A DNA stretch of 13,588 nucleotides from Sulfurimonadaceae bacterium. GTDB taxonomy: Bacteria; Campylobacterota; Campylobacteria; Campylobacterales; Sulfurimonadaceae. Of this stretch, positions 384 through 13,588 are shown one piece after another (the stretch's first letter is position 1; each line of letters starts with the position of its first letter). The position numbers and the translations under genes were made by a program. The stretch is from contig JBFEXS010000060.1 of NCBI GenBank assembly GCA_041562555.1, positions 1-13,588 of the forward strand, written 5' to 3'. A model generated the notes under the pieces. The model was given only the letters and a program-made list of their open reading frames with translations, did no database searches and had not been told where the DNA came from.

Positions 384-1019
384 TTACAGCAGAGACTTGG
401 CACACGCGACAGTGCTCTCCAGAGAGGTCTTTTCACTCACTATTGCCGTAATCCCTTGAGGTAAAGAATCACGGGTTGTCTCACCGATGCAAACGATCTT
501 ATATGTGGGTAGAAACAGATACTGTTTTAAAAAACATTTCACCGCCGATGGAGAGGTAAAAATACAGATGGCATCCTCAGGAAGGTCAACGGCCGTAAGA
601 TGCGAACATCGTGTCTCATATACGCTAAACGCATCTATATCAATGCCCCGCTCTTTTAACTGAGTTTCTATATCCACAGCAACTATTGTGGCATGGGGAT
701 ACAAGGCTTTGAGTTTGGGATATTTTGTTTGGATCATATCAATAATGTCCTTCCCGCTTCCTTGGGCCACGTCAAGCAACTTAGCCCCCTTTGCTTCTGC
801 AAAAGCGGCAGTTGCCTGAGAAATAGCCAAAACGGGAAGGTGTTTCCAGTCCCCTATTTTATCCAGGGCAGAGAGTGTCTCTTTGGAAGAGGCAATGACA
901 TAATCATAATCGGTGAAATCGATCTTGGGCTGAAGATAATAAGAAGACAATATCGGGATATGGTTTACATCAGGATGAGAAGTTTTAGAAAAAAGAAAAA
1001 TGGAGCTGTGCTTAGGCAC
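384..1019 (-). CDS. hemD: Uroporphyrinogen-III synthase
   Basis: 211 aa, GTG start. HemD-type motifs YDYVIASSK, AISQATA, VYET, IFTSPSAV and CIGETT. Starts 3 nt after the guaA stop. Confidence 0.85.
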   Translation of the reverse strand: MPKHSSIFLFSKTSHPDVNHIPILSSYYLQPKIDFTDYDYVIASSKETLSALDKIGDWKHLPVLAISQATAAFAEAKGAKLLDVAQGSGKDIIDMIQTKYPKLKALYPHATIVAVDIETQLKERGIDIDAFSVYETRCSHLTAVDLPEDAICIFTSPSAVKCFLKQYLFLPTYKIVCIGETTRDSLPQGITAIVSEKTSLESTVACAKSLL

Positions 1020-1022
1020 AGA

Positions 1023-2561
1023 CTACTCCCATTCTATTGTTGCCGGTGGTTTAGAGGAGATATCATACACTACACGGTTAATACCATCTACCTCATTGAT
1101 GATCCTGCGTGAGATACGTTCCAACAGATCATGCGGCAAATGAGCGAAGGTCGCCGTCATACCATCAACAGCTTCAACAACACGTACACAAACCGTGTTG
1201 TCATATGTACGATTATCTCCCATGACCCCTACAGACTTCACATTGAGAAGTACTGCAAAGGCTTGCCATGTCTTCGTATAATACCCGCTTGCTTTTAATT
1301 CATCAAGCAAGATCACATCGGCTTCACGAAGCAGGTCAAGATCAGGCACATTCACATCACCCATGATACGGATTGCAAGTCCCGGTCCAGGGAATGGATG
1401 ACGATTGATCATTGACTCAGGAAGGCCAAGTTCAAGACCGATTTTACGTACCTCGTCCTTAAATAACTCACGAAGCGGTTCGATCAACTCAAAATCCATC
1501 CAATCCGGAAGGCCCCCTACATTATGGTGTGACTTGATCACCTCAGATGGACCATTGACTGAGATAGACTCGATGACATCCGGATAAAGTGTACCCTGTG
1601 CTAAGAACTTGATACCATCATGTTTCTTCGCTTCTTTTTCAAACTCTTCAATGAAGGTATGCCCTATGATCTGACGCTTCTTCTCCGGATCAGACACCCC
1701 AGCAAGCTTACTTAAGAAATTATCAGCAGCATCTACAGTCACAAGAGGCGTTTTAAGGTTGATTTTAAACACTTCCTCAACCTGCTCACGCTCACCCTTA
1801 CGTAACAGTCCGTTATCAACGAATACAGGGATCAATTGATCACCGATTGCTTCATAAAGCATGGCAGCAACGACTGAGCTGTCTACCCCACCTGAAAGAC
1901 CACAAAGGACCTTCCCGTCACCAACCGTCTCACGGATCTTTGCAATCTGTTCTTTTAGAAAATGTTCCATCTTCCATTTTTCCGTTACACCACAGATCTT
2001 ACGCGCAAAATTGCGCAGCATCAGATACCCCTCAACAGAATGATTTACTTCCGGGTGGAACTGCATCGCGTAAATTTTCTTCTCTTCATTAGCAATTGCC
2101 GCATATGGGGAATTATCCGAAGTCGCTATCGGAGTGAAACCTTCAGGAAGTGTCTCCACACGGTCAGAGTGAGACATCCACACGATCCCGTTATCATCGA
2201 CATCCTCAAAAAGTGCAGATTTGGCACCAAGTGTCAACTCAGCTTTTCCGTATTCATGATGATCCGAACGAACGACGGAACCGCCAAAATCAACTGCAAT
2301 GCGCTGCATTCCATAACAGATACCCATGACAGGGATCCCCATCTCATAAACACCCTGGTCTACTTCATAGGCGTCTTTGTTATAAACAGAAGAAGGACCG
2401 CCTGAAAGAATAATACCTTGCGGGTTTTTCGCTTTAATATCATCTATACTTGAATGATAAGGAATGATCTCACAATAGATCTTATCTTCACGTAGACGAC
2501 GTGCGATTAACTGTGTATATTGCGAACCGAAATCAAGAACAATAATGCTTACATTTTTCAA
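1023..2561 (-). CDS. guaA: GMP synthase (glutamine-hydrolysing)
   Basis: 512 aa, TTG start with AAGG SD. Motifs [21 protein letters not shown] (catalytic Cys), [24 protein letters not shown] and C-terminal KPPATIEWE. Confidence 0.98.
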
Positions 2562-2673
2562 TTGGGATACCTTTTGGTGATCTAGTGGTAGAAGAATACT
2601 CTATTTATCATTAAAAGTTTGTGAAAGTAAAAGCTCTATATAAAAGCCGAATACAATGAAGATAGGAAGGAGA

Positions 2674-4086
2674 CTAGTGTCCCCCTTCCATTGGAAGTTC
2701 AAACTCCGTATTACACTCAGGACAGTGTGCTTTTGGAGCCTCTTTTTTATTGTGCACTTCATGTTTGTTGTACAGGCCTAGGACTTCGAACTGTGTATAC
2801 CAGATGGCAATTGACAGTACATAACCGACTAGGATCGTCCAAGAAAGGCGCATATGTGCACCAAAGGTATAAATACCTTTTAGTTTACCCATAACACCGA
2901 CTCCTGCCGCAGAACCAAAGGCGATCAATGATCCCCCGATACCTGCAGTCAATGTAACAAGAAGCCACTGATCCAGACCAAGATCCGGAGATGCTTTTAA
3001 CACTGCCGACATAACCGGAACATTATCTACAATTGCCGATAGGAAACCAACACCGACATTCACAACCGTCGGGTCAAACATATCATACAGTTTTACTGCA
3101 TACGCAAGGAAGCCTGCAAAGTGCAATGCACCTACCGCTGCCAAGATACCAAAGAAAAACAATAAAGTGTCATTCTCGACCTTAGCAATAGAGTGATAGA
3201 TATCCATATCTTCCTGATGCTTCTTCTGTAAAAAGTACACATAAAGCTTCAAGATAGAAAGACCGAACAACATACCCCACATTGGAGGAAGATGCATGAC
3301 CTGTTTTGAGAAGACTGCCGTGGCAATAGTAAATACTCCAAGGGCTACAATTACCTTACCGCCTTTAAGGATCTCGATACTTTCTGCTTTAGCATCATCC
3401 TCTTTACCGGGATGACCCTCCGGTACATAGCGACTCAACAGGTACGCCGTCACTAACCATCCCAGAACAGAAGCCGGGAACAGGTACAGGAAATCTACAA
3501 AATGCCCCTTGTTTGCCGTCCATGCCATAAGTGTCGTGATATCTCCGAAAGGAGACCATGCACCACCGGCATTTGCCGCGACGACAATATTGATCGCACC
3601 AGGGACCAAAAACTCTTTATTACTCTTGTCAATCGTGATCAAGACCGTCGAAAGGATCAATGCCGTCGTCAGGTTATCTGCCACCGGAGAGATAAAGAAT
3701 GCAAGTACACCCGTTACCCAGAACAGACCTTTATAACTATAACCTTTGGCGATCAGCTTCTCTTTTAAAGCATTGAACACACCTCTGTCAATCAACGCTT
3801 CGATAAATGTCATCGCAACATATAAAAAGAAAAAGATCTCAGCGATTTCCAAAATCAAATGAGCGATTTCTGTCTCAAAAGGTTTCATATTAATGCCGTT
3901 ATATGCATAAAACCCTCCGATAATCATAAACATCAATGTACCGATAAACAGGGCCGGTTTTGCCTTGTTAATATGATACTTTTCCTCCGCTGCAATAAAA
4001 TAATATCCAATTACGAATATTGCCAGTAACGCCCAACCTATAGGCTCTGACGCCATATCCAAAGTCTCTTCGACTGCTCTTGTCAT
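2674..4086 (-). CDS. nhaD: NhaD-family Na+/H+ antiporter (IT superfamily) with a C-terminal His/Cys tail
   Basis: 470 aa, multi-TM. NhaD signatures ISPVADNLTTA, AANAGGAWSPFGDITTLM, SAIVDNVP and GIGGSLIAFGSAAGV. The start overlaps the nadB stop (ATGA, 4086-4083). Confidence 0.92.
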   Translation of the reverse strand: MTRAVEETLDMASEPIGWALLAIFVIGYYFIAAEEKYHINKAKPALFIGTLMFMIIGGFYAYNGINMKPFETEIAHLILEIAEIFFFLYVAMTFIEALIDRGVFNALKEKLIAKGYSYKGLFWVTGVLAFFISPVADNLTTALILSTVLITIDKSNKEFLVPGAINIVVAANAGGAWSPFGDITTLMAWTANKGHFVDFLYLFPASVLGWLVTAYLLSRYVPEGHPGKEDDAKAESIEILKGGKVIVALGVFTIATAVFSKQVMHLPPMWGMLFGLSILKLYVYFLQKKHQEDMDIYHSIAKVENDTLLFFFGILAAVGALHFAGFLAYAVKLYDMFDPTVVNVGVGFLSAIVDNVPVMSAVLKASPDLGLDQWLLVTLTAGIGGSLIAFGSAAGVGVMGKLKGIYTFGAHMRLSWTILVGYVLSIAIWYTQFEVLGLYNKHEVHNKKEAPKAHCPECNTEFELPMEGGH

Positions 4087-5531
4087 TCTTCATTCTCCTT
4101 CATATAATGTACCCCTATTGAGGTCTTTCGCTTTATAGCAGATATCACTATCTCTTTAGCAGTTAACAATCGCAACTTCAAAAGACGTCCAATATGCTTA
4201 TGCAAGGTGTCCTCAATAAAGTCCAGGGCTTCCTGAAGTCCTTTTTGCGTACGTACAATCCCTACATCGTTCCACATTATACGACGAAGTTCACTCTTGT
4301 AATATGTATCATCCTCACAACGTAAACAATCTTTGCTGATTGGAAAGTTTTTTGGCACATAAGTAACACTTTTGGACTCAATTCTTCTAGCCGCACGTGC
4401 AGCAAAAACCAAACCTTCCAAAAGTGAGTTACTGGCCAAACGGTTTGCACCATGTACCCGCGTTGATGCCACCTCACCAATAGCATACAGGTTGTCTATG
4501 TTAGGGACTTCTCCGTCCAGATTCGTCTTGATACCCCCGATCGCATAATGAAAGGCAGGTGAGATAGGTACGCGATCCTTAGGAAGATTGAAACCGGCGG
4601 ATTTCAATTTGGAAGCGATATTGGGAAAACGCTTATTAAAATACTCGGGTTCAAAGTTTTCAAACGAGAGATAGACCTCTTGCCCCGTTTTCTGCTTATA
4701 ATCGAAAATCGCTCTAGATACGATATCGCGTGGCGCCAATTCTGCCCGTTCATCATAATCTTTCATAAATGCGTAACCATTTTTGTCCACAAACCTAGCA
4801 CCTTCTCCACGCAATGCCTCAGTCAGTAACTGTTTTTGTGCAGCATTTGAGCTGACGTATACGGTAGGATGAAACTGCAGCATCTCCATATGTTCAAGTT
4901 CGATCTGCTTTTCCAGACAGATACCCTGTAGATCCCCACTGATCGTAGACGCATTCGTATGATAGGCGAAGAGTGAACCCAGCCCTCCCGAAGCTATCAC
5001 AACACTTTTTGCAAAAATCTGCTTTAACTCGTCCCTATAGTTGACACAGACACCGTAGCATTTTCCATCATCTATAAGCAGGTCCGTGACCTGTGCGCCT
5101 TCAAGCATAGGGTGTATGTTGTTCTCCAGTAAAAAGCAGTGAAGGTAACGCCCTGTCGCATCCCCTCCCGCATGCAGAATACGTGAGGCTGAGTGAGCCG
5201 CTTCTTTGGTATAATGCAGTTCACCTTGAGGGTTCTTGTCAAATTGGAAACCTCTCTTGATAAGATCACCGACGACCTCTCTGCTGTGTTCGCTGAGCAC
5301 TCTGACTGCTTCTTCATCACACAGTCCCGCACCGGCGATCATAGTATCTTGGATATGTGAGGCTTCATCTGCATCATCCACAGCAGTAACAACTCCGCCT
5401 TGAGCGTAATAGGTATTACACTCCCACGGATGGTTCTTGTTGATGATAAGTACTTTCTTATTTTTAGGAAGATTCATCGCGGCATATAGACCGGCAACAC
5501 CGGCGCCAATAATTACTACGTCATAGACCAT
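4083..5531 (-). CDS. nadB: L-aspartate oxidase
   Basis: 482 aa. FAD-binding IIGAGVAG, TYYAQGG, EAAHSASRILHAGGDATG, QFHPT, LLTEALRGEGA, ELAPRDIVSRAI, HYAIGGI and HGANRLASNSLLEGLVF. It lacks the covalent-FAD His motif of SdhA/FrdA. Confidence 0.93.
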   Translation of the reverse strand: MVYDVVIIGAGVAGLYAAMNLPKNKKVLIINKNHPWECNTYYAQGGVVTAVDDADEASHIQDTMIAGAGLCDEEAVRVLSEHSREVVGDLIKRGFQFDKNPQGELHYTKEAAHSASRILHAGGDATGRYLHCFLLENNIHPMLEGAQVTDLLIDDGKCYGVCVNYRDELKQIFAKSVVIASGGLGSLFAYHTNASTISGDLQGICLEKQIELEHMEMLQFHPTVYVSSNAAQKQLLTEALRGEGARFVDKNGYAFMKDYDERAELAPRDIVSRAIFDYKQKTGQEVYLSFENFEPEYFNKRFPNIASKLKSAGFNLPKDRVPISPAFHYAIGGIKTNLDGEVPNIDNLYAIGEVASTRVHGANRLASNSLLEGLVFAARAARRIESKSVTYVPKNFPISKDCLRCEDDTYYKSELRRIMWNDVGIVRTQKGLQEALDFIEDTLHKHIGRLLKLRLLTAKEIVISAIKRKTSIGVHYMKENEE

Positions 5532-5558
5532 AAACTTAATTACTCACTCTTTTTTGAA

Positions 5559-5566
5559 ATTATAGC
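5559..5566 (-). promoter_or_regulatory. Putative -10 element for the nadB-nhaD operon
   Basis: Minus strand GCTATAAT (TATAAT at 5564-5559) with upstream T-tracts, 27 nt before the nadB ATG. Confidence 0.6.
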
Positions 5567-5692
5567 GACAAAAAGCAAAAGCCTTATGTCCATATATAAT
5601 GCTAGATTTTATTCTTATCTAGTTTACTGCTTTTCAGAAGGATAATATGGAGGTGCTTTATAACCGCATCCATTTAGACTTAACATCAAAAC

Positions 5693-5701
5693 TGTTATAA
5701 T
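5693..5701 (+). promoter_or_regulatory. Extended -10 promoter implying a leaderless transcript starting at ATG 5708
   Basis: TGTTATAAT at 5693-5701, then 6 nt (AGTGAT), then ATG at 5708. No SD between them. Confidence 0.75.
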
Positions 5702-5707
5702 AGTGAT

Positions 5708-6151
5708 ATGAAAAATTCTCAACAGCTTGTTTCTCATCTTCGCTCTCAATCGGCCTTTTCGCCTTTAGATAGATTACCCTGCATCAACGCCGTCAAGGAG
5801 CTTCTTCCTACACGGTTACATCGGTTTATTTTATTTGGATATATTCGTCATAACATTCTATTTTTTGCACTGAATCACCCGGGTGCAAAACAAGAATTCG
5901 ATAATATTATAAATTCTATAAAAGCACCTTTAAAAAAAATGCCGCCAATTTCCTGTAAGAACTTCGAAATATATGATGTGAGGGCTTTTGTTTCCCATAA
6001 AAAAACACTAAAGTTTCATACCCACAAACCTAAAGAAGTTCATTACTCGGAACGATCCAATGGGGAATTTGAGAACCATGTTGACGATGAAAAACTTCAC
6101 TCCATCATCGAAGAGATACGAGATCTGATTAAAACTAATGAAAACACTTAA
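5708..6151 (+). CDS. Conserved hypothetical protein, DUF721/DciA-like (tentative)
   Basis: 147 aa, basic. The segment FILFGYIRHNILFFALNHPGAKQEF resembles the beta-beta-helix KH-like core of DUF721/DciA by eye only. Overlaps the uvrC start by 14 nt. Confidence 0.55.
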   Translation: MKNSQQLVSHLRSQSAFSPLDRLPCINAVKELLPTRLHRFILFGYIRHNILFFALNHPGAKQEFDNIINSIKAPLKKMPPISCKNFEIYDVRAFVSHKKTLKFHTHKPKEVHYSERSNGEFENHVDDEKLHSIIEEIRDLIKTNENT

Positions 6152-7961
6152 CGAAACCCTGCTTAAACAGGTCAAAAACCTTCCAAAAACAGCCGGAGTA
6201 TATCACTATTTCGATGAGAATGGGAAACTGCTATATATAGGTAAGGCAAAAAACCTTCTTGCCCGTGTCAAAAGTTATTTTCGCTTTTCACCGAAGTTCG
6301 GCATCAACCCCAACCTTAGCAGCCGTATTCTAAAAATGCTGCATGAAGTACACTCTATGCATTACATTCTTGTCGAGAGTGAACATGATGCCCTGATTTT
6401 AGAGAACTCCCTTATCAAGCAGCTCAAACCAAAATATAATATACTCCTCAGAGATGACAAGACCTATCCCTATATTTATATCAATTCGGATGATCCCTTT
6501 CCCCGTTTTGAGATCACCCGAAAAGTCCTTTCACATAAATCCATTCAATATTTTGGCCCCTTCTCTACAGGAGCACGGGATATCTCCAATGCACTGTATG
6601 AATTATTGCCCCTGGTTCAAAGTAAAAGTTGTCTCAAAGGAGGAAAAGCCTGCCTCTACTATCAGATCAAAAAATGCCTCGCACCATGTGAGGCCAAAGT
6701 CACACCCAGTGCATATGCTCAATACATCGATCAGGGAATAGCCTATATCAATGATAAAAAAAAGCTTTGTCAGGATCTCGAAATCAAGATGCATAGCCTG
6801 GCGGAGGCCTTGCGTTTTGAGGAAGCTACGCTCTTACGCGACAGCATCGAAAAAATCAAAAAAAGCACCACCATTTCCCAAATGGACATGGCAAGCAGTG
6901 AGGATTTGGACCTTTTTGCTGTCGATTCCAATGAGAAAAGAGCCGTTGTCCTGCGTTTGTTTGTTCGGCATGGCAAAGTGATATCCTCTTCACATAATTT
7001 CATCCATCTCAATCACGGTTTTGATCGTGATGAACTGTATAAACGTGCTATCCTGGAGTTTTACCAGTTTTCTCCGCTTACCTCAAAACAGATCCTCGTT
7101 GCCCATGAATTTGAAGAGATGCAGGAGATCAGTGATTATCTTAAACAGAACTTCTCTTCAGCACTCAAACTCACCCATGCACAGCGGGGTCCAAAAGCCA
7201 AACTGTCTCAACTGGCTCTGACCAACGCCCAGGAGCTATTGAACAATTATGCGAAAGAGACGAGTCCGATGTATGAAGAACTCGAACAAAAACTACAAGA
7301 ACTATGTGAGCTAGATGTACAGCCAAAACGTATTGAGGTTTTTGACAACTCGCATATGCAAGGATCAGCTCCGGTAGGCGCCATGATCTGTTTTGAGAAT
7401 GGGGGCTTCAATAAAAGCGGCTACCGTCAATATCATCTTGAAAGCCTGGATGAATATGCACAAATGAAAGAGACCTTGACACGACGTATTCAAAGTGCCG
7501 AGTCCAACCCTCTGCCGGACCTTTGGATCCTAGATGGAGGGACTACCTTGCTGCACCTTGCTAAAGATATCTTAGACTCTCAAGGAATCAATCTGGAAGT
7601 CATCGCTATTTCAAAAGAAAAAATCGATGCCAAGGCACACAGAGCGAAGGGAAAAGCAAAAGATATCCTGCATACACATACCCAAAGTTTTGCTTTAAAC
7701 AGCAGTGACAGACGACTTCAATGGGTACAACGTATGCGGGATGAAGCACATCGGTACGCCATCACCTTTCATCAAAAAACAAAACTTAAACAAGACAAAG
7801 CTTCAAAGCTTTTACAGACTAAAGGGATCGGCCCGGCTAAGCTTAAAAAACTGCTAAATCACTTCGGTAGTTTTGAAGCGCTGAAGGATGCTACACAAGA
7901 GGATATAAGCCTCATTTTGGGAAAAAATGATGCAATCGAAATTAAGAAATTATACAAATAA
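6138..7961 (+). CDS. uvrC: Excinuclease ABC subunit C
   Basis: 607 aa. GIY-YIG domain (GVYHY..LLYIGKAKNL..RV), PKYNILLRDDKTYPYI, four-Cys cluster CLKGGKACLYYQIKKCLAPC, UVR motif LRFEEATLLRD, RNase H-like RIEVFDNSH / PDLWILDGG / RDEAHRYA, and C-terminal HhH GIGP. Confidence 0.97.
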   Translation: MKTLNETLLKQVKNLPKTAGVYHYFDENGKLLYIGKAKNLLARVKSYFRFSPKFGINPNLSSRILKMLHEVHSMHYILVESEHDALILENSLIKQLKPKYNILLRDDKTYPYIYINSDDPFPRFEITRKVLSHKSIQYFGPFSTGARDISNALYELLPLVQSKSCLKGGKACLYYQIKKCLAPCEAKVTPSAYAQYIDQGIAYINDKKKLCQDLEIKMHSLAEALRFEEATLLRDSIEKIKKSTTISQMDMASSEDLDLFAVDSNEKRAVVLRLFVRHGKVISSSHNFIHLNHGFDRDELYKRAILEFYQFSPLTSKQILVAHEFEEMQEISDYLKQNFSSALKLTHAQRGPKAKLSQLALTNAQELLNNYAKETSPMYEELEQKLQELCELDVQPKRIEVFDNSHMQGSAPVGAMICFENGGFNKSGYRQYHLESLDEYAQMKETLTRRIQSAESNPLPDLWILDGGTTLLHLAKDILDSQGINLEVIAISKEKIDAKAHRAKGKAKDILHTHTQSFALNSSDRRLQWVQRMRDEAHRYAITFHQKTKLKQDKASKLLQTKGIGPAKLKKLLNHFGSFEALKDATQEDISLILGKNDAIEIKKLYK

Positions 7962-7981: not shown

Positions 7982-7990
7982 TGATATATT
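7982..7990 (+). promoter_or_regulatory. Possible extended -10 (TGaTATATT) for the signalling operon
   Basis: TGATATATT, one mismatch to TGnTATAAT, in the 94-nt uvrC-PAS gap. Confidence 0.35.
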
Positions 7991-8055: not shown

Positions 8056-8469
8056 ATGGGACAAGTAGAAGCATTAGATGAAGAGTATCTCTTTCAAGGG
8101 CGTGTAATCATAAGTGAGACTGACTTAAAAGGTGTCATAACGTATGCCAACCGTAAGTTTTGTGAAATATCCGGTTACTCTAACGATGAGCTTGTTGGAC
8201 AACCACATAACATTATTCGTCATCCTGATATGCCAAAAGAAGCATTTGCAAAGGTCTGGAGTACGATTCAAGGTGGTCAAATCTGGCATGGGTTAGTCAA
8301 AAATTTACGAAAAGATGGTAAATTTTACTGGGTCGAAACGGAAATCCTTCCGTCCAAAGATGCTGACGGCAATATTATAGGTTATGTCGCTGCGCGCAAA
8401 CCTGCTGCACGTAAAGATATTGAAGAAACAGCTGAAATTTATAGAAAAATGAAAGAAAAAGAACTCTAA
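8056..8469 (+). CDS. Stand-alone PAS protein of the Aer/CetB type (putative FAD-binding redox sensor)
   Basis: 137 aa: IISETDLKGVITYAN..FCEISGY..ELVGQPHNIIRHPDMP..AF..VW..I..G..W.G.VKN.RKDG..YWV. This matches the Aer PAS pattern, including the RHxD, Trp and Asn residues linked to FAD binding. No TM or output domain. AAAGG SD. Confidence 0.9.
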   Translation: MGQVEALDEEYLFQGRVIISETDLKGVITYANRKFCEISGYSNDELVGQPHNIIRHPDMPKEAFAKVWSTIQGGQIWHGLVKNLRKDGKFYWVETEILPSKDADGNIIGYVAARKPAARKDIEETAEIYRKMKEKEL

Positions 8470-8481
8470 AAAGGGGAGCTA

Positions 8482-10389
8482 TTGCTATTATACAACCAAC
8501 GAAAAGAGTTTATCGGTATTGATGAAGATGATCTAAGTGCATTAGACTTTCAAAATATCGCTGAACTGCAGAACGAATCCAATGACTTTGCGGATTTATT
8601 CGTCAAGAAACCGGGATACATCCATAACTTCAAGAATTTTTCATGGATTGACTTCATTCTACACAGTGAGTCAGATGAATCCAAAGCAGTGATTCATGCC
8701 AAAGGAAAGAACTATTCCTGTGTGTTGCATGTCACACCGTTCCACTTTACTTCAGAAGAAAGCGGCTTTGCCATCAACATCAAGAATCTTCGTCCTCTTT
8801 CCGGGGCTGAAGATGCTCAAGCGAGCAAAGACCTGGCTGCTGCAGGTGGGATCCAGGCTTCCCCTGCACCGAAGGTCGCTCCCTCAGCACCTACTCCTCC
8901 TGTTGCAAAAGCTGTTGAAGAGAAAAGACCTGAACTGGACATATCACTCAGTGACATACAGATGCCGGAACAAGGAAGTAGTATACCTACAGAGTCAGAA
9001 CCTGATATGGAACTACCAAGTTTCGAGCTTGAAAATGCCCATGAACTGAGCGAACCAGATCCGTTGGAAGTACCTGAACCACAAGAGATCGATCTGGGAC
9101 TATCTTCTCCTGATCTACCAAGCGAAAATGCTTTTGGCGCTCCGACTACAAACGAGTTTGGTGCTCCAAGTACCCTGGATATCAATGCACCTCTGGACAT
9201 CAATGCAGATGATCTTATGCATGACGATTTTGAAGAAGTTCCTGTACCTGAAGAGATTGATATCCCAGAGCCCCTAACACCAAAACCTTCCGAAGCTCCG
9301 ATGCTTGGTGACTATGTAAGTGGTGAGGGTTCAGAACACCTGAGTGAACTCGTCAGATCAGGCGAATATAGATATGACCCGAGTGTCGCCGCCAATGAAC
9401 TTGGCTTGCCGGTTGATCTGATCGAAGAGTTCATAGGTGACTTTATCGATCAGGCCCACGAGTTCCATGATGACCTTTTTGCTTCCGTTGACGCAGGTGA
9501 TTTTGACAATGTACAGATACTTTCACATAAGCTCAAAGGAGTCGCGGCGAACCTTCGTGTAGAAGACGCCTTTGATGTATTAAGTGTTGTGAACACCTCA
9601 AAAGAGAGTGAGGAAATCCTTCCAAACCTCAATGAGTTCTACAAGATCATCGCAAGACTCGAAGGTAAAGAAATCCCGGCAGCAGCACCAGCCGCACCAG
9701 TCATTGAAGCTCCTGTTCAAGATGAAGAACCGGCAGCAACCATTGAAATCAAACAGCCCGATGAAGGACCAATGCTTATTGATGAAGATGTCATGCCTCC
9801 AATGGATGATGATGACCTATATGCAGACCTTCTTGCCACACCGGAACCTGCACCTGAGCCAGAGCCGGAACCAAGTTTTGAACAGACGCAGACTTCCATA
9901 GATGACGATATCTATGATGATCTTTTGGCAAGTCCGGAGTTATCCGAACCTGTGATGAGTGAACCTGAACTGGACCCGACACCGGTAGCAATCGACGATG
10001 ATATTTATGATGACCTTCTGGGTGCACCACTGGATGAGCCTTCAGTAGAAGTATCTCAGAACGATCCAATACCTTCTTCTGACGTTCCTGCACTTAACTT
10101 TGATGCACAACGCAGTGCCAATGAGCTTGGTATCCCTGTGGATATTGTCAATGATTTTGTACAGGACTTCAAAGAGCAGGTACGTATACATCAAAGTGAT
10201 TTTGACAACGCTATTGCCAGCGGTAACATTCAAGAAATCAACAAAACAGCTACTCTTCTTAAGGGAATGAGTGATAATCTACGTCTAAATGAAATCTCTG
10301 AGGTTCTCAAAGAACTTCAATCTGAAAAAGACGTTAACAATACAGCACAAGCTCTTGCATCATTGCAAGCTTATGCAGATCAATTATAA
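8482..10389 (+). CDS. Hpt (histidine phosphotransfer) domain protein: PAS-like N-terminus, acidic Pro-rich linker, Hpt, repeat linker, degenerate Hpt
   Basis: 635 aa, TTG start with AAGGGGAG SD. Hpt1 (~9373-9663) has SHKLKGVAANL, His349 at 9526-9528. Hpt2 (~10099-10386) is a clear paralog (ANELGLPVDLIEEFIGDF vs ANELGIPVDIVNDFVQDF) but reads ATLLKGMSDNL. Confidence 0.85.
   Translation: MLLYNQRKEFIGIDEDDLSALDFQNIAELQNESNDFADLFVKKPGYIHNFKNFSWIDFILHSESDESKAVIHAKGKNYSCVLHVTPFHFTSEESGFAINIKNLRPLSGAEDAQASKDLAAAGGIQASPAPKVAPSAPTPPVAKAVEEKRPELDISLSDIQMPEQGSSIPTESEPDMELPSFELENAHELSEPDPLEVPEPQEIDLGLSSPDLPSENAFGAPTTNEFGAPSTLDINAPLDINADDLMHDDFEEVPVPEEIDIPEPLTPKPSEAPMLGDYVSGEGSEHLSELVRSGEYRYDPSVAANELGLPVDLIEEFIGDFIDQAHEFHDDLFASVDAGDFDNVQILSHKLKGVAANLRVEDAFDVLSVVNTSKESEEILPNLNEFYKIIARLEGKEIPAAAPAAPVIEAPVQDEEPAATIEIKQPDEGPMLIDEDVMPPMDDDDLYADLLATPEPAPEPEPEPSFEQTQTSIDDDIYDDLLASPELSEPVMSEPELDPTPVAIDDDIYDDLLGAPLDEPSVEVSQNDPIPSSDVPALNFDAQRSANELGIPVDIVNDFVQDFKEQVRIHQSDFDNAIASGNIQEINKTATLLKGMSDNLRLNEISEVLKELQSEKDVNNTAQALASLQAYADQL
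9127..9210 (+). repeat. Two short in-frame tandem duplications in the first linker of the Hpt protein
   Basis: 24-nt x2 encoding NAFGAPTT/NEFGAPST (9127-9174), followed at once by 18-nt x2 encoding LDINAP/LDINAD (9175-9210). Confidence 0.75.
9805..10083 (+). repeat. Degenerate 93-nt (31-aa) tandem repeat, three units, core [D/I]DDD[L/I]Y[A/D]DLL
   Basis: Units start at 9805 (DDDDLYADLLATP), 9898 (IDDDIYDDLLASP) and 9991 (IDDDIYDDLLGAP), exactly 93 nt apart. Confidence 0.85.
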
Positions 10390-10401
10390 GGTGGGTAAAC
10401 A

Positions 10402-13400
10402 ATGCAAATAGGTCTTAAAGCCAGACTTAGGCTGATCAGTCTTTTCCCGATTTTTATGCTTATCGGGATTGCAAGTTATTATGTATATGATTCGTATATT
10501 GGTTACGACTCTGCGATCAAACTACAGTCAAAACTTGAAGAGAACAAAAAACTTAATGAACTAATCGGGGATCTTTCTCGTGAACGCGGTATGACCGTTA
10601 TGTACATGGGAAACAGTTCAGAGGCAACCGCTGAATCACTTAGATCACAACGTGCAATCGTTGACAAGAAAGTTTCAGCTTATATTACACACTTGAAGAC
10701 AACTGAGCAGTTACATAACCACTCCGGCGAAGGTGTCTGTTTCGCCTGTAGAAGTGTAAAAAGTATTGAATCCAACTATTCTACGATTAGAGACGTTCGT
10801 CCACTTGTTGACAATCAAAATGTGGAATTCCAGGAAATCTTCTATGATATCTACGGAAACGCACAAAAACTTATCATCAAAGAACTTGAAGAGATTCGTA
10901 ACTACGAACTGGATGAAAAGATCACATCTATCGCGACCTCCTACCTTATTCTGGCAAAGGCAAAAGAGTTTACCGGTTCTGAACGTGACTTCATTACCTA
11001 TGCACTGGCACGTTCGACCAAGTTTGACTCCGAAGAGCTCAATGTATGGCTGACACTCATCGGTAAGGCCGATGCAATCAACTATAATGCCTTGACAAAT
11101 GAAGATCTGAAACAGCGTTTGAATGCACTCTTTCAAGATGAAGACAATGCCGAACTTTTTGAGGATATTACCCTTGAACGTGCAGAGATCATGCAAGCTG
11201 TCAATGATGGACTTTACGCGACAGAAGCAGGTATCTGGTTTACCATGCTTTCAGAGAAGATCAACCTGATAGACGAAGCAGAACAGATTCTACTTAATGC
11301 GATGGATGAAGAGTCTGAGTTGTTTAAACAAGAACAGTTAAAGATCCTTGTCATTTCGATTGGTATCTGGGCATTTGCTATTCTTGGAGCGATCTTTGGT
11401 ATCCTTCTTTCTACGGATATCGCAAGAAACATCAAAAACCTTGAAACGGTACTTCAGCGTGTTGCGACGGATACTCATGAGGGTGATGATATGTCATCAT
11501 CAGAGATTGCATCACATATCAACCTTGATACCGCTAAGGGTACTGCACAGGCTTACCAACTACTTGAAACGATCATTGATCAGACCCGTAAGGATAAAGA
11601 CTTTGCGATGGAGGCTTCAGAAGCCAAATCAATGTTCCTTGCAAACATGTCACATGAGATCCGTACACCACTCAATGGTATTGTCGGGTTTACCGAGCTA
11701 CTGAAAGACACGGCCCTTCACGATGAGCAACGCGAGTTCGTAGATATCATTGAGAAATCTTCAGAAAACCTTCTTGAAATTATCAATAATATTCTTGACC
11801 TCTCCAAAATCGAATCAAATAAACTTGAGATCGAAGAGATCGTCTTCAACGCTCAAGAAGAGTTCGAATCTGCCGTTGAAGTATACGCGGTGCGTGCTTC
11901 CGAAAAACATATCGATCTTGGCTGTTTTATTGACCCTGAACTTGAGAACCCGATTAAAGGGGATCCTACCAAAATCAAAGAAGTTGTCATCAATCTTCTT
12001 TCAAATGCCGTCAAGTTTACTAACTCCGGTGGTGCGATTACTGTCGATATCCGCAAGATGGAGTGTGAAGAACCTGGTCGTGCACGTGTACGCTTCAGCG
12101 TTAAAGACAGCGGTATCGGTGTTACACAAGAACAGAAAGACAGAATTTTCGAGGCCTTTGGACAGGCAGACTCCTCTATTACGCGTAAATATGGTGGTAC
12201 AGGTCTTGGTCTTACCATTTCATCAAGCTTTATTGAACTTATGGGTGGTAAGCTTGATCTTGAGTCTGAACCAGGACAAGGTACAACCTTCTTCTTTACA
12301 CTTGACTTTGAAGAGATTGAAACACTTAATGAGTCAATGCGCAACCAGTATTCAAATATTAATGCTGTTATTCTTGAATCAGACTCCAAACGTAAAGTAC
12401 AAGAGACCAATCTACGTGAATACCTTGATTTTTATGGCGTCTCCTATCAGAGCTTCAAAAATATTGATGAACTCAATAAACTTGAGCAGAAGATCTCTTA
12501 TGACTTGATGTTTGTTGATTATGACTATAGTAGCGAAGAAGACCTGTATGAGTATGCGAATCATCCTGAACACATGATCTTGATCACCAAATCATATTAT
12601 ATGAAGAAAATCGATTCACTCAAGCTCAGTCTGTTCAAGGTTATGTACGAACCGCTTAATGCATCAAAGATTCGCAGTGTACTCGAGTCTCATGATGTTG
12701 AAGAGTTTAATCAATCTAAACAAAAGACTATCCAGAAGCGAAAATACGATGAAAAAACATCTCGTTTTGATGCCAAAGCATTAGTTGCAGAAGACAACTT
12801 GATTAACCAAAAACTGATCAAACGTACCCTTGAAGATATCGGTCTGAGCGTTCAATTGGCGAACAATGGCCTCGAGGCTTTTGAAAAACGTAAAAACAAT
12901 CAATTTGATGTTATCTTTATGGATATTCAGATGCCGGTTCTTGATGGAGTTGAGGCAACACAAGAGATCTTAGAGTATGAAGAAGACTATAAGGTTGAGC
13001 ATACACCTATAATCGCTTTGACTGCAAATGCACTTAAAGGTGACCGTGAACGTTTTATGGGTGCAGGTATGGATGAGTATACAACTAAACCTCTCGTCCG
13101 TTCAGAGATTATCTCACTTCTAAACCACTTTATTGGCCACAAAATCGTTGATGCCAAAGCCATCACGAACCAGGAGCCGAAAGTAGAGCCTACACCTGAA
13201 CCAGTCGTAACACCTGAACCGGTAGTTGCTCCTGAACCAACACCTGAGCCTGTTCTCATTCCTCAAGCAAGTGTAGAAGATCAGATCATGAATGACACGC
13301 TCAATGAGGATGAATTCAATGTTGATCTCACCTTGGATGATTTGAGTCTGGATATTCAGGAATCACCTGTTTTGGAACCTGAACCAATTATGGAGCCAGA

Positions 13401-13588
13401 GGTACCGTCCATAAGTATTGAAGAAGATGACATATATGCCGATGACGCTGTTGAGACGGCAATACCTTCTGCATACGACGCCGATATCTTATTGGCGAAA
13501 AAAAGTGCTTTTGAAAACCGCCTGTTCAAATCTATCCTTGATGATTTAGGATATACATCTATTAGTGTAGATGGTATTGATGCTGTCA
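10402..13588 (+). CDS. Membrane-bound hybrid sensor histidine kinase with NIT-like periplasmic domain and multiple receiver domains (partial, 3' end beyond window)
   Basis: Manual translation shows an open frame from ATG 10402 to the window end (1062 codons), absent from the ORF track. Order: TM1 LISLFPIFMLIGIASYYVY; NIT-like LSRERGMT, QRAIVD, AKEFTGSERD, WFTMLSEKIN; TM2 ILVISIGIWAFAILGAIFGILL; H-box FLANMSHEIRTPLNG (His418, 11653-11655); N-box NLLSNAVKFT; G1 DSGIG; F FEAFGQAD; G2 GGTGLGL; canonical REC LVAEDN..FMDIQMP..LTA..KP (Asp841, 12922-12924). Confidence 0.95.
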   Translation, partial: MQIGLKARLRLISLFPIFMLIGIASYYVYDSYIGYDSAIKLQSKLEENKKLNELIGDLSRERGMTVMYMGNSSEATAESLRSQRAIVDKKVSAYITHLKTTEQLHNHSGEGVCFACRSVKSIESNYSTIRDVRPLVDNQNVEFQEIFYDIYGNAQKLIIKELEEIRNYELDEKITSIATSYLILAKAKEFTGSERDFITYALARSTKFDSEELNVWLTLIGKADAINYNALTNEDLKQRLNALFQDEDNAELFEDITLERAEIMQAVNDGLYATEAGIWFTMLSEKINLIDEAEQILLNAMDEESELFKQEQLKILVISIGIWAFAILGAIFGILLSTDIARNIKNLETVLQRVATDTHEGDDMSSSEIASHINLDTAKGTAQAYQLLETIIDQTRKDKDFAMEASEAKSMFLANMSHEIRTPLNGIVGFTELLKDTALHDEQREFVDIIEKSSENLLEIINNILDLSKIESNKLEIEEIVFNAQEEFESAVEVYAVRASEKHIDLGCFIDPELENPIKGDPTKIKEVVINLLSNAVKFTNSGGAITVDIRKMECEEPGRARVRFSVKDSGIGVTQEQKDRIFEAFGQADSSITRKYGGTGLGLTISSSFIELMGGKLDLESEPGQGTTFFFTLDFEEIETLNESMRNQYSNINAVILESDSKRKVQETNLREYLDFYGVSYQSFKNIDELNKLEQKISYDLMFVDYDYSSEEDLYEYANHPEHMILITKSYYMKKIDSLKLSLFKVMYEPLNASKIRSVLESHDVEEFNQSKQKTIQKRKYDEKTSRFDAKALVAEDNLINQKLIKRTLEDIGLSVQLANNGLEAFEKRKNNQFDVIFMDIQMPVLDGVEATQEILEYEEDYKVEHTPIIALTANALKGDRERFMGAGMDEYTTKPLVRSEIISLLNHFIGHKIVDAKAITNQEPKVEPTPEPVVTPEPVVAPEPTPEPVLIPQASVEDQIMNDTLNEDEFNVDLTLDDLSLDIQESPVLEPEPIMEPEVPSISIEEDDIYADDAVETAIPSAYDADILLAKKSAFENRLFKSILDDLGYTSISVDGIDAV
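13174..13254 (+). repeat. Pro-Glu low-complexity repeat in the kinase inter-receiver linker
   Basis: Encodes EPKVEPTPEPVVTPEPVVAPEPTPEPV, with a recurring CCTGA(A/G)CC unit. Confidence 0.75.

Follow-up and report, generated by a model that had tools for sequence, protein, structure and literature searches.

A conserved phosphorelay operon of the Campylobacterales with predicted nitrate and redox inputs and a tentative link to type IV pili

The DNA analysed here (the window) is an entire contig, C60, of 13,588 nucleotides from a Sulfurimonadaceae bacterium (genome G000; 2.1 Mb, 88.9% complete). It carries three co-directional genes coding for a stand-alone Aer-type PAS protein (gene 1), a protein with a PAS fold and two histidine phosphotransfer (Hpt) repeats (gene 2) and a hybrid histidine kinase with a periplasmic NIT domain (gene 3). 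A fourth gene, coding for a lone receiver, was found on contig C107 of the same genome. The genes specify a phosphorelay that is real, ancient and apparently uncharacterised, and that is built of known parts. All four relay acceptors are encoded together, namely His418 and Asp841 of the kinase, His349 of the gene 2 protein and Asp57 of the C107 receiver. As a possible reading, which we favour tentatively, a periplasmic nitrate/nitrite kinase and an FAD-binding PAS protein acting in trans feed a lone receiver that acts on the PilT-driven type IV pilus or on attachment. The three genes, their 12-nt spacings and the residues His418, Asp841 and His349 had been reported in a preliminary description and were found as given there; truncation of the kinase by the contig end and the fourth gene go beyond it.

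The operon is conserved in gene order. Relatives in named records were represented by the best 80 of 135. In their loci the PAS gene was present in 76 of 80 and the receiver gene in all 61 with a complete kinase and more than 450 nt of downstream sequence, in line with the synteny expected beforehand. Median intergenic gaps in relatives were 10.5 nt (n=70) and 11 nt (n=55). An extended -10 element occurred in 70 of 73 intergenic regions between uvrC and the PAS gene, that of G000 included, compared to a mean of 4.3 and a maximum of 11 in 200 shuffles; the count is drawn from kin sequences, in which the element is constant while the surrounding DNA differs. It is likely the operon's own RpoD (housekeeping-type) promoter. 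Spacing and promoter motif together suggest that the four genes are co-transcribed as one operon from it.

Campylobacterota dominate sulfidic redox interfaces, and the phylum is described as being without Arc, FNR and Nar regulators (PMC6682613), while the signals of its atypical kinases are largely unassigned (PMC9239204). Few signalling units are retained, as this operon is, in so many families of the order; its carriers include many free-living relatives of Campylobacter and also lineages that have lost flagella and all chemoreceptors. Moreover, it offers a defined set of four phospho-sites together with natural variants in which the PAS gene, the Hpt histidine, the receiver or the kinase histidine is missing. 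It had been proposed as uncharacterised, and no account of it was found in the literature searched, which included few subscription papers and none of the PMC9239204 supplements. The accessible parts of PMC6682613, PMC9239204, PMC11481889, PMC2628731, PMC11804620 and PMC10832524 do not describe it.

Candidate sensors of the operon

The kinase consists of a first membrane segment (approx. residues 3-29), the periplasmic NIT domain, a second membrane segment (311-342; both from a hydropathy scan), a helical linker, a HisKA domain with His418, a HATPase domain, a pseudo-receiver, a canonical receiver with Asp841, an acidic linker and the start of an atypical third receiver. Full-length relatives comprise 1032 to 1281 aa. 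Pfam assigned NIT (residues 53-301; 95.8 bits, cut-off 24.9), HisKA, HATPase_c and one canonical Response_reg domain, and for these as for PAS_3 and Hpt in the other two proteins it agrees with the domains named in the preliminary description. The features of a hybrid HisKA kinase are present: the H-box histidine, the N and G boxes and, in the receiver, the acidic pocket, Asp, Thr and Lys. Among 69 kinases from the 80 loci (minimum length 700 aa, N-terminus present) His418 was found in all and Asp841 in 66, the remaining three being alignment gaps. Both residues were intact in 27 of 27 kinases outside families f1 and f12; family codes are those of the genome set described below, f1 being taken as Sulfurimonadaceae. 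His418 was retained in two of five f12 kinases. Three f12 loci (L147, L167 and L171; L numbers denote loci in relatives) hold a pseudokinase version without H-box histidine and with eroded ATP boxes, next to which gene 2 is shortened.

Profiles of the periplasmic region matched the NasR structure 4AKK (E 4.8e-5 and 6e-8) and nothing else notable, which bears out the NIT-like assignment. The NasR motifs Q-C-E-R-G and G-Q-E-R-A align to S59-R-E-R62-G and G192-S-E-R195-D of the kinase, and R62 and R195 are the counterparts of the two nitrate-site arginines of NasR. The NasR numbering was taken from the chain offset to E175/R176 of PMC7496416, where both are given as nitrate-pocket residues; the two arginines and a G-x-x-R motif are also described elsewhere (PMC8199190). 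E61, R62, G63, E194 and R195 were invariant in 69/69 relatives and belong to the few invariant periplasmic residues. In other families the two arginines were present in 26 and 24 of 27 kinases, respectively. With respect to the Q/G-x-x-R motif, the small residue of site 2 is G in this protein (as in 25/69), and that of site 1 is S, neither Q nor G. On the strength of the conserved arginines we consider it somewhat probable that the NIT domain binds nitrate or nitrite. Like NasR and the NIT chemoreceptors, the kinase belongs to the NIT family and has both E-R motifs. Unlike NasR, its NIT domain is periplasmic and part of a hybrid kinase, the Gln47 position is Ser, and a His-x-His...Cys-x-x-Cys insert is present. 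HxH and CxxC occurred together in 43 of the 69 Sulfurimonadaceae kinases and CxxC in 46; CxxC was found in none of the kinases scanned outside f1. The insert is possibly a metal or thiol site. A single-sequence AlphaFold2 model of the NIT domain (pLDDT 49.5) was too poor for use. Two further NIT-family proteins are encoded by G000 on other contigs (its contigs are given as C numbers), one of 321 aa at C33:11532-12497 and a membrane protein of 811 aa at C17:21374-23809. The former follows a presumed nitrate ABC transporter cluster, and the latter resembles a NIT-GGDEF-EAL protein.

Gene 1 codes for a PAS_3 protein (Pfam, E 2e-17) without membrane segments, which matched the PAS structure of E. 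coli Aer (8DIK) with E 7.8e-33. The FAD contacts of Aer are His53, Asn85 and Arg115 (PMC9668731). In the 8DIK alignment they correspond to H51, N83 and R114, so that all three flavin contacts are present, and among 75 relatives these residues were retained in 65, 72 and 56, respectively. The protein is a predicted FAD redox sensor. It shares the FAD-PAS subfamily with Aer and is stand-alone as is CetB. Unlike Aer and CetB, it is encoded with a histidine kinase and not with a chemoreceptor, and it is kept in genomes without any methyl-accepting chemotaxis protein (MCP). The gene was found only in families f1, f4, f6, f14 and f17. With the NIT arginines and the Aer flavin contacts retained, the nitrate and redox inputs of the earlier proposal are plausible. 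G000 has one more free-standing gene for an Aer-type PAS protein, of 142 aa, at C31:664-1092, and no signalling gene adjoins it.

The predicted phosphotransfer path and its variants

The gene 2 protein comprises a PAS fold (residues 1-105), an acidic proline-rich linker, an Hpt repeat with His349, a second acidic linker and a His-less Hpt repeat with Thr591. Pfam found Hpt in two stretches (E 9e-13) and gave no match for the N-terminal approx. 105 aa. This N-terminal domain is a PAS fold according to the model obtained with AlphaFold2 (pLDDT 92; alignment of 42 rows): the VIA-align matches listed are PAS-domain proteins, the best with Z 9.1 and a root mean square deviation of 2.7 Å over 90 residues. 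The best Foldseek match had an E value of 0.04, and a comparison of this domain with the ESM Atlas yielded nothing beyond unnamed or weak PAS clusters. The linkers contain 23-29% Asp plus Glu and 14-17% Pro. Between the two Hpt repeats sequence identity is 31% (E 7e-15). In the Hpt motif H-x-L-K-G the first repeat has H349 and the second T591, which makes the latter a pseudo-Hpt repeat. The protein lacks membrane segments in the hydropathy scan, and no extra Pfam domain was fused to it among the best 120 of 206 longer proteins.

The histidine of repeat 1 was found in 79 of 81 open reading frame (ORF) rows from the 80 loci; of the two exceptions one is a truncated ORF and the other the second fragment of an ORF split in two. 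The corresponding position of repeat 2 was not His in any of the 58 complete relatives with a detected second motif. Beyond Sulfurimonadaceae the picture is more diverse. At least one Hpt histidine was kept in 28 of 28 proteins from f1, f4, f6, f14 and f17, residing in the first repeat in f1, in the second in f4 and in two of three repeats in most f17 proteins. The Hpt-like repeat was His-less in 24 of 24 proteins from seven families (f11, f12, f13, f19, f23, f24 and f25), from which four further gene 2 proteins showed no detectable repeat. According to an rpoB tree calculated with FastTree (f15 missing, f7 partial) six of these families fall within one clade of 100% support and f25 lies outside, and the histidine was probably lost in one event plus one. 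The Hpt step is likely real in this lineage, yet not the conserved essence of the system. In an entire clade kinase and receiver persist alongside a His-less Hpt, and a linear His-Asp-His-Asp relay is therefore not obligatory. All four sites of the relay proposed in the preliminary description are encoded, but its necessity is doubtful. In locus L193, the rpoB of G027, a stop-free non-RpoB frame covers the same 1364 codons, probably on the opposite strand.

In relatives the kinase gene is followed by a gene of 124-127 aa with only a receiver domain in Pfam. D10-D12, D57, T88 and K107 were invariant in 13/13 of these receivers, and D57, T88 and K107 in 20/20. They form a distinct family, present in 79 of 170 genomes, 76 of which are kinase-positive. 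The terminal response regulator expected downstream of the kinase was therewith found, but the lone receiver has neither an output nor a DNA-binding domain. G000 encodes a paralogue at C99:5923-6300 (minus strand; 60% identity with the copy of a relative), immediately upstream of the gene for a 434-aa protein (C99:4440-5744, minus strand) which by eye consists of a membrane anchor, an acidic linker, a receiver and a His-less Hpt-like C-terminus, resembling a second pseudo-Hpt module. Tandem hybrid kinases without Hpt motif are encoded at C63:6415-8382 and C63:8407-10359. Their N-termini match the gene 2 PAS subfamily at approx. 40 bits, and they are possible further donors to His349.

The variable Hpt step raises an alternative, in which the core of the system is a kinase–scaffold pair largely without phosphotransfer that senses something other than nitrate, be it another small anion or a metal or thiol bound by HxH/CxxC. 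It would account for families in which the Hpt repeat is His-less while H418 and D841 stay intact outside f12, for the absence of the lone receiver from f19 (0/12), for the three f12 genomes keeping a His-less kinase next to the gene 2 PAS protein, and for genome G148 (locus L187), where a 1380-aa kinase and the receiver directly follow uvrC and gene 2 is missing. It has to face the invariance of His349 in this lineage, the Hpt histidine of all 28 proteins from f1, f4, f6, f14 and f17, the two NIT arginines among the few invariant periplasmic residues, and an insert that is limited to part of one family. We regard it as unlikely.

The closest known architecture is that of ShkA-ShpA-TacA of Caulobacter crescentus (PMC6969517), which likewise has a pseudo-receiver and then a canonical receiver behind the kinase core, together with a separate Hpt protein. 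The structure 6QRJ ('Hybrid kinase'; identifier in PMC6969517) matched residues 7-498 of the cytoplasmic query with E 5.6e-55. The soluble ShkA lacks an N-terminal sensor and is switched by cyclic di-GMP (c-di-GMP) via a DDR linker, and its relay leads to a transcription factor (PMC6969517). In contrast, the present relay is built around a membrane-bound NIT sensor, has an atypical third receiver but no DDR, and includes a lone receiver as well as a PAS–double-Hpt protein of 635 aa. With DDR in 0/67 and 0/30 of the linkers between the first two receivers and a NIT domain between two membrane segments, the kinases fall outside the ShkA family. ArcB, BarA and TorS use the same His-Asp-His chemistry. 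BarA was the best NCBIfam match, with 424.7 bits far under the cut-off of 890, ArcB reached 264.5 of 838, and TorS was also far under its cut-off. Unlike in these unorthodox kinases, the Hpt domain resides on a separate protein and a DNA-binding partner is not linked. HmrABCX of C. crescentus combines a hybrid kinase with separate phosphotransfer proteins, and its output is proposed to act via c-di-GMP on the motile/sessile switch (PMC11481889); it differs in sensor and parts. In Pseudomonas aeruginosa, pilus control involves FimL, which has two His-less Hpt-like domains, along with the CheY-like PilG and PilH (PMC3019171). Points in common with FimL and ChpA-PilG/PilH are Hpt-like domains in tandem, which in FimL have no His, receivers of the CheY type and the control, tentative here, of type IV pili; the analogy is functional only. 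The Chp chemosensory system employs CheA, MCP and CheW, whereas this relay has a HisKA hybrid kinase with a NIT sensor, and CheA-type kinase, MCP and CheW were absent from the loci read.

Distribution and possible output

Every probe was run on the same set of 170 Campylobacterales genomes (25 family codes; at least 90% complete). Kinase orthologues were present in at least 95 of them among the matches listed; a search at the level of the phylum gave only genomes of this order. A match was called if its ORF reached approx. 890 aa or ran into a contig end; G098 and G112 were added after confirmation by locus. A few orthologues were possibly missed, e.g. in G069, G125 and G168, where the receiver is present. 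The locus was read for 59 of the 95 genomes, in one of them (G051) out of operon context. The lone receiver is retained in f11, f13, f23 and f24, and f25 has gene 2 without the kinase. In G098 and G112 (L228 and L229) a divergent 1011-aa kinase is accompanied by an unrelated gene of 465-489 aa in place of gene 2. Weak matches of probe A7 in f5, f8, f16, f20 and f25, of 490-750 aa or, with two NIT domains, of 913-962 aa, were not counted as orthologues, judged by length.

The genome of the window has flhA, as have most carriers, and the stand-alone PAS proteins Aer1/Aer2 (CetB/CetC) of Campylobacter jejuni serve the chemoreceptor Tlp9/CetA (PMC9665402). Energy taxis, with the PAS protein acting CetB-like on a chemoreceptor and the lone receiver acting as CheY on the flagellar motor, is nevertheless highly improbable. 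flhA was absent from 16 of 95 kinase-bearing genomes, and the receiver family occurred in 14 flhA-less genomes. None of the five genomes tested for the MCP signalling domain (G169, G180, G157, G148 and G036; G000 was not searched for MCPs) had a match. Three of these (G169, G180 and G157) still hold the Aer-PAS gene in an operon devoid of a chemoreceptor gene, and therefore its partner cannot be a CetA-type chemoreceptor. Because the kinase persists without flhA and the Aer-PAS gene without any chemoreceptor, the output is not flagellar.

Since no DNA-binding regulator is linked to the operon in any of the 61 complete loci, the output is not local transcription either. The relay had been proposed to replace ArcBA/NarXL. 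In this case it would control transcription of nap, nir and nos genes through an unlinked DNA-binding regulator, and the lone receiver would be a phosphate sink. NIT and Aer-PAS inputs suit such a role, as does a phylum without Arc, FNR and Nar regulators. napA was found in 86 of 95 kinase-bearing (91%) versus 49 of 75 kinase-less genomes (65%), and G000 itself has napA and many unlinked receiver proteins. However, napA tracks the kinase poorly: all 13 f10 genomes have napA and none an orthologue of the relay, whereas in G126 (one contig, 99% complete), with a full operon, napA (above the cut-off), narG and nirS were not found. nirS was not found in the 88.9% complete G000, and an Nss/FNR-like box was present in none of 73 upstream regions. 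The ArcBA/NarXL proposal is weakened by these observations, and we judge it quite unlikely.

pilT was the sole tested marker that fully encloses the kinase distribution. It was present in 95/95 kinase-bearing genomes, and the kinase was found in 0/30 pilT-less genomes among the matches listed. In f12 the four pilT-positive genera all hold a kinase orthologue and the single pilT-less genus does not. A 978-aa ORF of the pilT-less G053 matches only the NIT part (E 7e-18). A minor pilin gene lies near the operon in f1, f4, f6 and f17 and was found, by hand count, in 86 of the 95 kinase-bearing genomes. Control of the type IV pilus or attachment by this relay, with nitrate or nitrite as an input, is tentatively favoured because of the lone receiver, the carriers without flhA and MCP, the nesting within pilT, the NIT arginines and the FimL-PilG/PilH precedent. 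The connection to pili is a lead, the best at hand, rather than a result.

In the favoured mechanism a periplasmic anion, nitrate or nitrite, would set the activity of the kinase, and the free FAD-PAS protein would report the redox state in trans to the kinase or to gene 2. Phosphate is predicted to pass in this lineage from His418 via Asp841 and His349 to Asp57 of the lone receiver; in lineages without the Hpt histidine the kinase would phosphorylate the receiver directly. Gene 2 would likely serve also as a scaffold, its His-less repeat and acidic linkers docking receiver domains by analogy with what has been proposed for FimL. The lone receiver would act on the attachment machinery by protein contact, so that cells at the oxic/nitrate/sulfide interface could stay or let go without a change in transcription. 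A further-reaching version is doubtful but conceivable, namely an ancestral, array-free control of type IV pili in which nitrate kinase, FAD-PAS protein and FimL-like scaffold act on a receiver setting retraction or attachment. If true, it would account for the positioning of vent biofilm lineages without flagella and chemoreceptors in gradients of O2 and nitrate, and it would provide an example of a histidine kinase pathway under trans regulation by a free PAS protein of the Aer type.

Several observations weigh against control of pili by a nitrate-responsive relay. The pilT nesting amounts to approx. three losses on the rpoB tree, of which only that in genus g38 is a clean co-loss; in the other two, pilT-positive relatives are also without kinase, and 45 of 75 kinase-less genomes still have pilT. 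The minor pilin was unmatched at E 1e-20 in 9/95 kinase-bearing genomes, and the three genomes of genus g47 are all among these nine. The pilin cluster is located on the far side of lon-bamD-fliW-proC; in the f11, f12, f14, f19, f23 and f24 loci read it was not next to the operon. On the input side, the position of NasR Gln47 is Ser, Ala or Pro in 69/69 relatives, with Gln or Gly never found at position 59, and some NIT domains, e.g. that of PA4520, do not bind nitrate (PMC6381276; also PMC13343842). The enrichment of napA is a further point of this kind.

The same inputs could instead reach c-di-GMP enzymes through the lone receiver or the receivers of the kinase, resulting in a motile/sessile switch as in HmrABCX and leaving the pilT pattern incidental. 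Apart from the Hmr precedent (PMC11481889), atypical kinases of the phylum are often flanked by c-di-GMP genes (PMC9239204). GGDEF genes were present in 5/5 kinase-bearing genomes tested (2 to 18 each), compared to 0-2 in four of five kinase-less, pilT-less genomes. G110 has 10 GGDEF matches and no kinase. No GGDEF or EAL gene adjoins the operon in the loci read, only part of which were Pfam-scanned, and the DDR motif by which ShkA is switched is missing from every linker scanned. Signalling through c-di-GMP is a rather unlikely alternative to direct action of the receiver on the pilus.

In G000 a large adhesin-like gene and several prepilin-like clusters were noticed (C107:1-1566, C6:26372-36912, C35, C71 and C75), along with three pilT-family matches.

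Operon layout and neighbouring genes

The features are compiled in Table 1. Purine-rich, Shine-Dalgarno-like tracts precede genes 2 and 3, and gene 1 has only a short AAGG; the preliminary description gave each of the three a Shine-Dalgarno sequence. The C107 end contains the final 13 kinase codons and the stop codon, followed by a 9-nt gap and the receiver start, and approx. 65 kinase codons are missing in the assembly gap between C60 and C107.

Table 1. Coordinates of operon features in the window or, where a contig is named, elsewhere in genome G000.
Feature	Position	Strand	Remarks
Extended -10 element TG-n-TATATT	7982..7990	+	between uvrC and PAS gene; likely promoter
Gene 1, Aer/CetB-type PAS	8056..8469	+	ORF 137 aa
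Gene 2, PAS–Hpt–pseudo-Hpt	8482..10389	+	ORF 635 aa, TTG start
His349 codon	9526..9528	+	phospho-acceptor of Hpt repeat 1
Thr591 codon	10252..10254	+	His position of pseudo-Hpt repeat
Gene 3, NIT hybrid kinase	10402..13588	+	ORF 1062 aa, open at contig end
NIT domain	10558..11304	+	Pfam PF08376
His-x-His...Cys-x-x-Cys insert	10714..10749	+	residues 105-116, periplasmic domain
His418 codon	11653..11655	+	autophosphorylation site
Asp841 codon	12922..12924	+	canonical receiver
Contig end	13588..13588	+	operon resumes on G000:C107, minus strand
Single-domain receiver	G000:C107:6702-6328	minus	124 aa, 84% identical to a relative's copy

A generic promoter scan was uninformative (3 found versus 5.5 expected), and a generic scan revealed no plus-strand terminator between 7800 and 10600. 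Sigma-54, sigma-28 and Nss/FNR-like patterns were not enriched upstream of the operon. The looser pattern TGA-N8-TCA occurred in 7 of 73 regions versus a mean of 1.4.

A gene of 125-149 aa with a signal-peptide-like start is inserted between gene 2 and the kinase gene in families f4, f14, f17, f23 and f24 (L132:10843-11241, L150:10467-10871, L172:10338-10772 and others). One copy reached 28.9 bits for the Sel1 repeat, under the cut-off of 30.7.

Among the neighbouring genes uvrC, hemD, lon, YfiO, FliW, proC and N-methyl pilin motifs are backed by Pfam; the labels guaA, nadB, nhaD, DUF721, bamD and MSHA-like are presumptive. Upstream of the operon, positions 384-7961 of the window hold housekeeping genes, with minus-strand hemD, guaA-like, CitMHS/NhaD-type transporter and nadB-like genes followed by a 147-aa gene and uvrC. 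This block from hemD to uvrC sits before the operon in most families.

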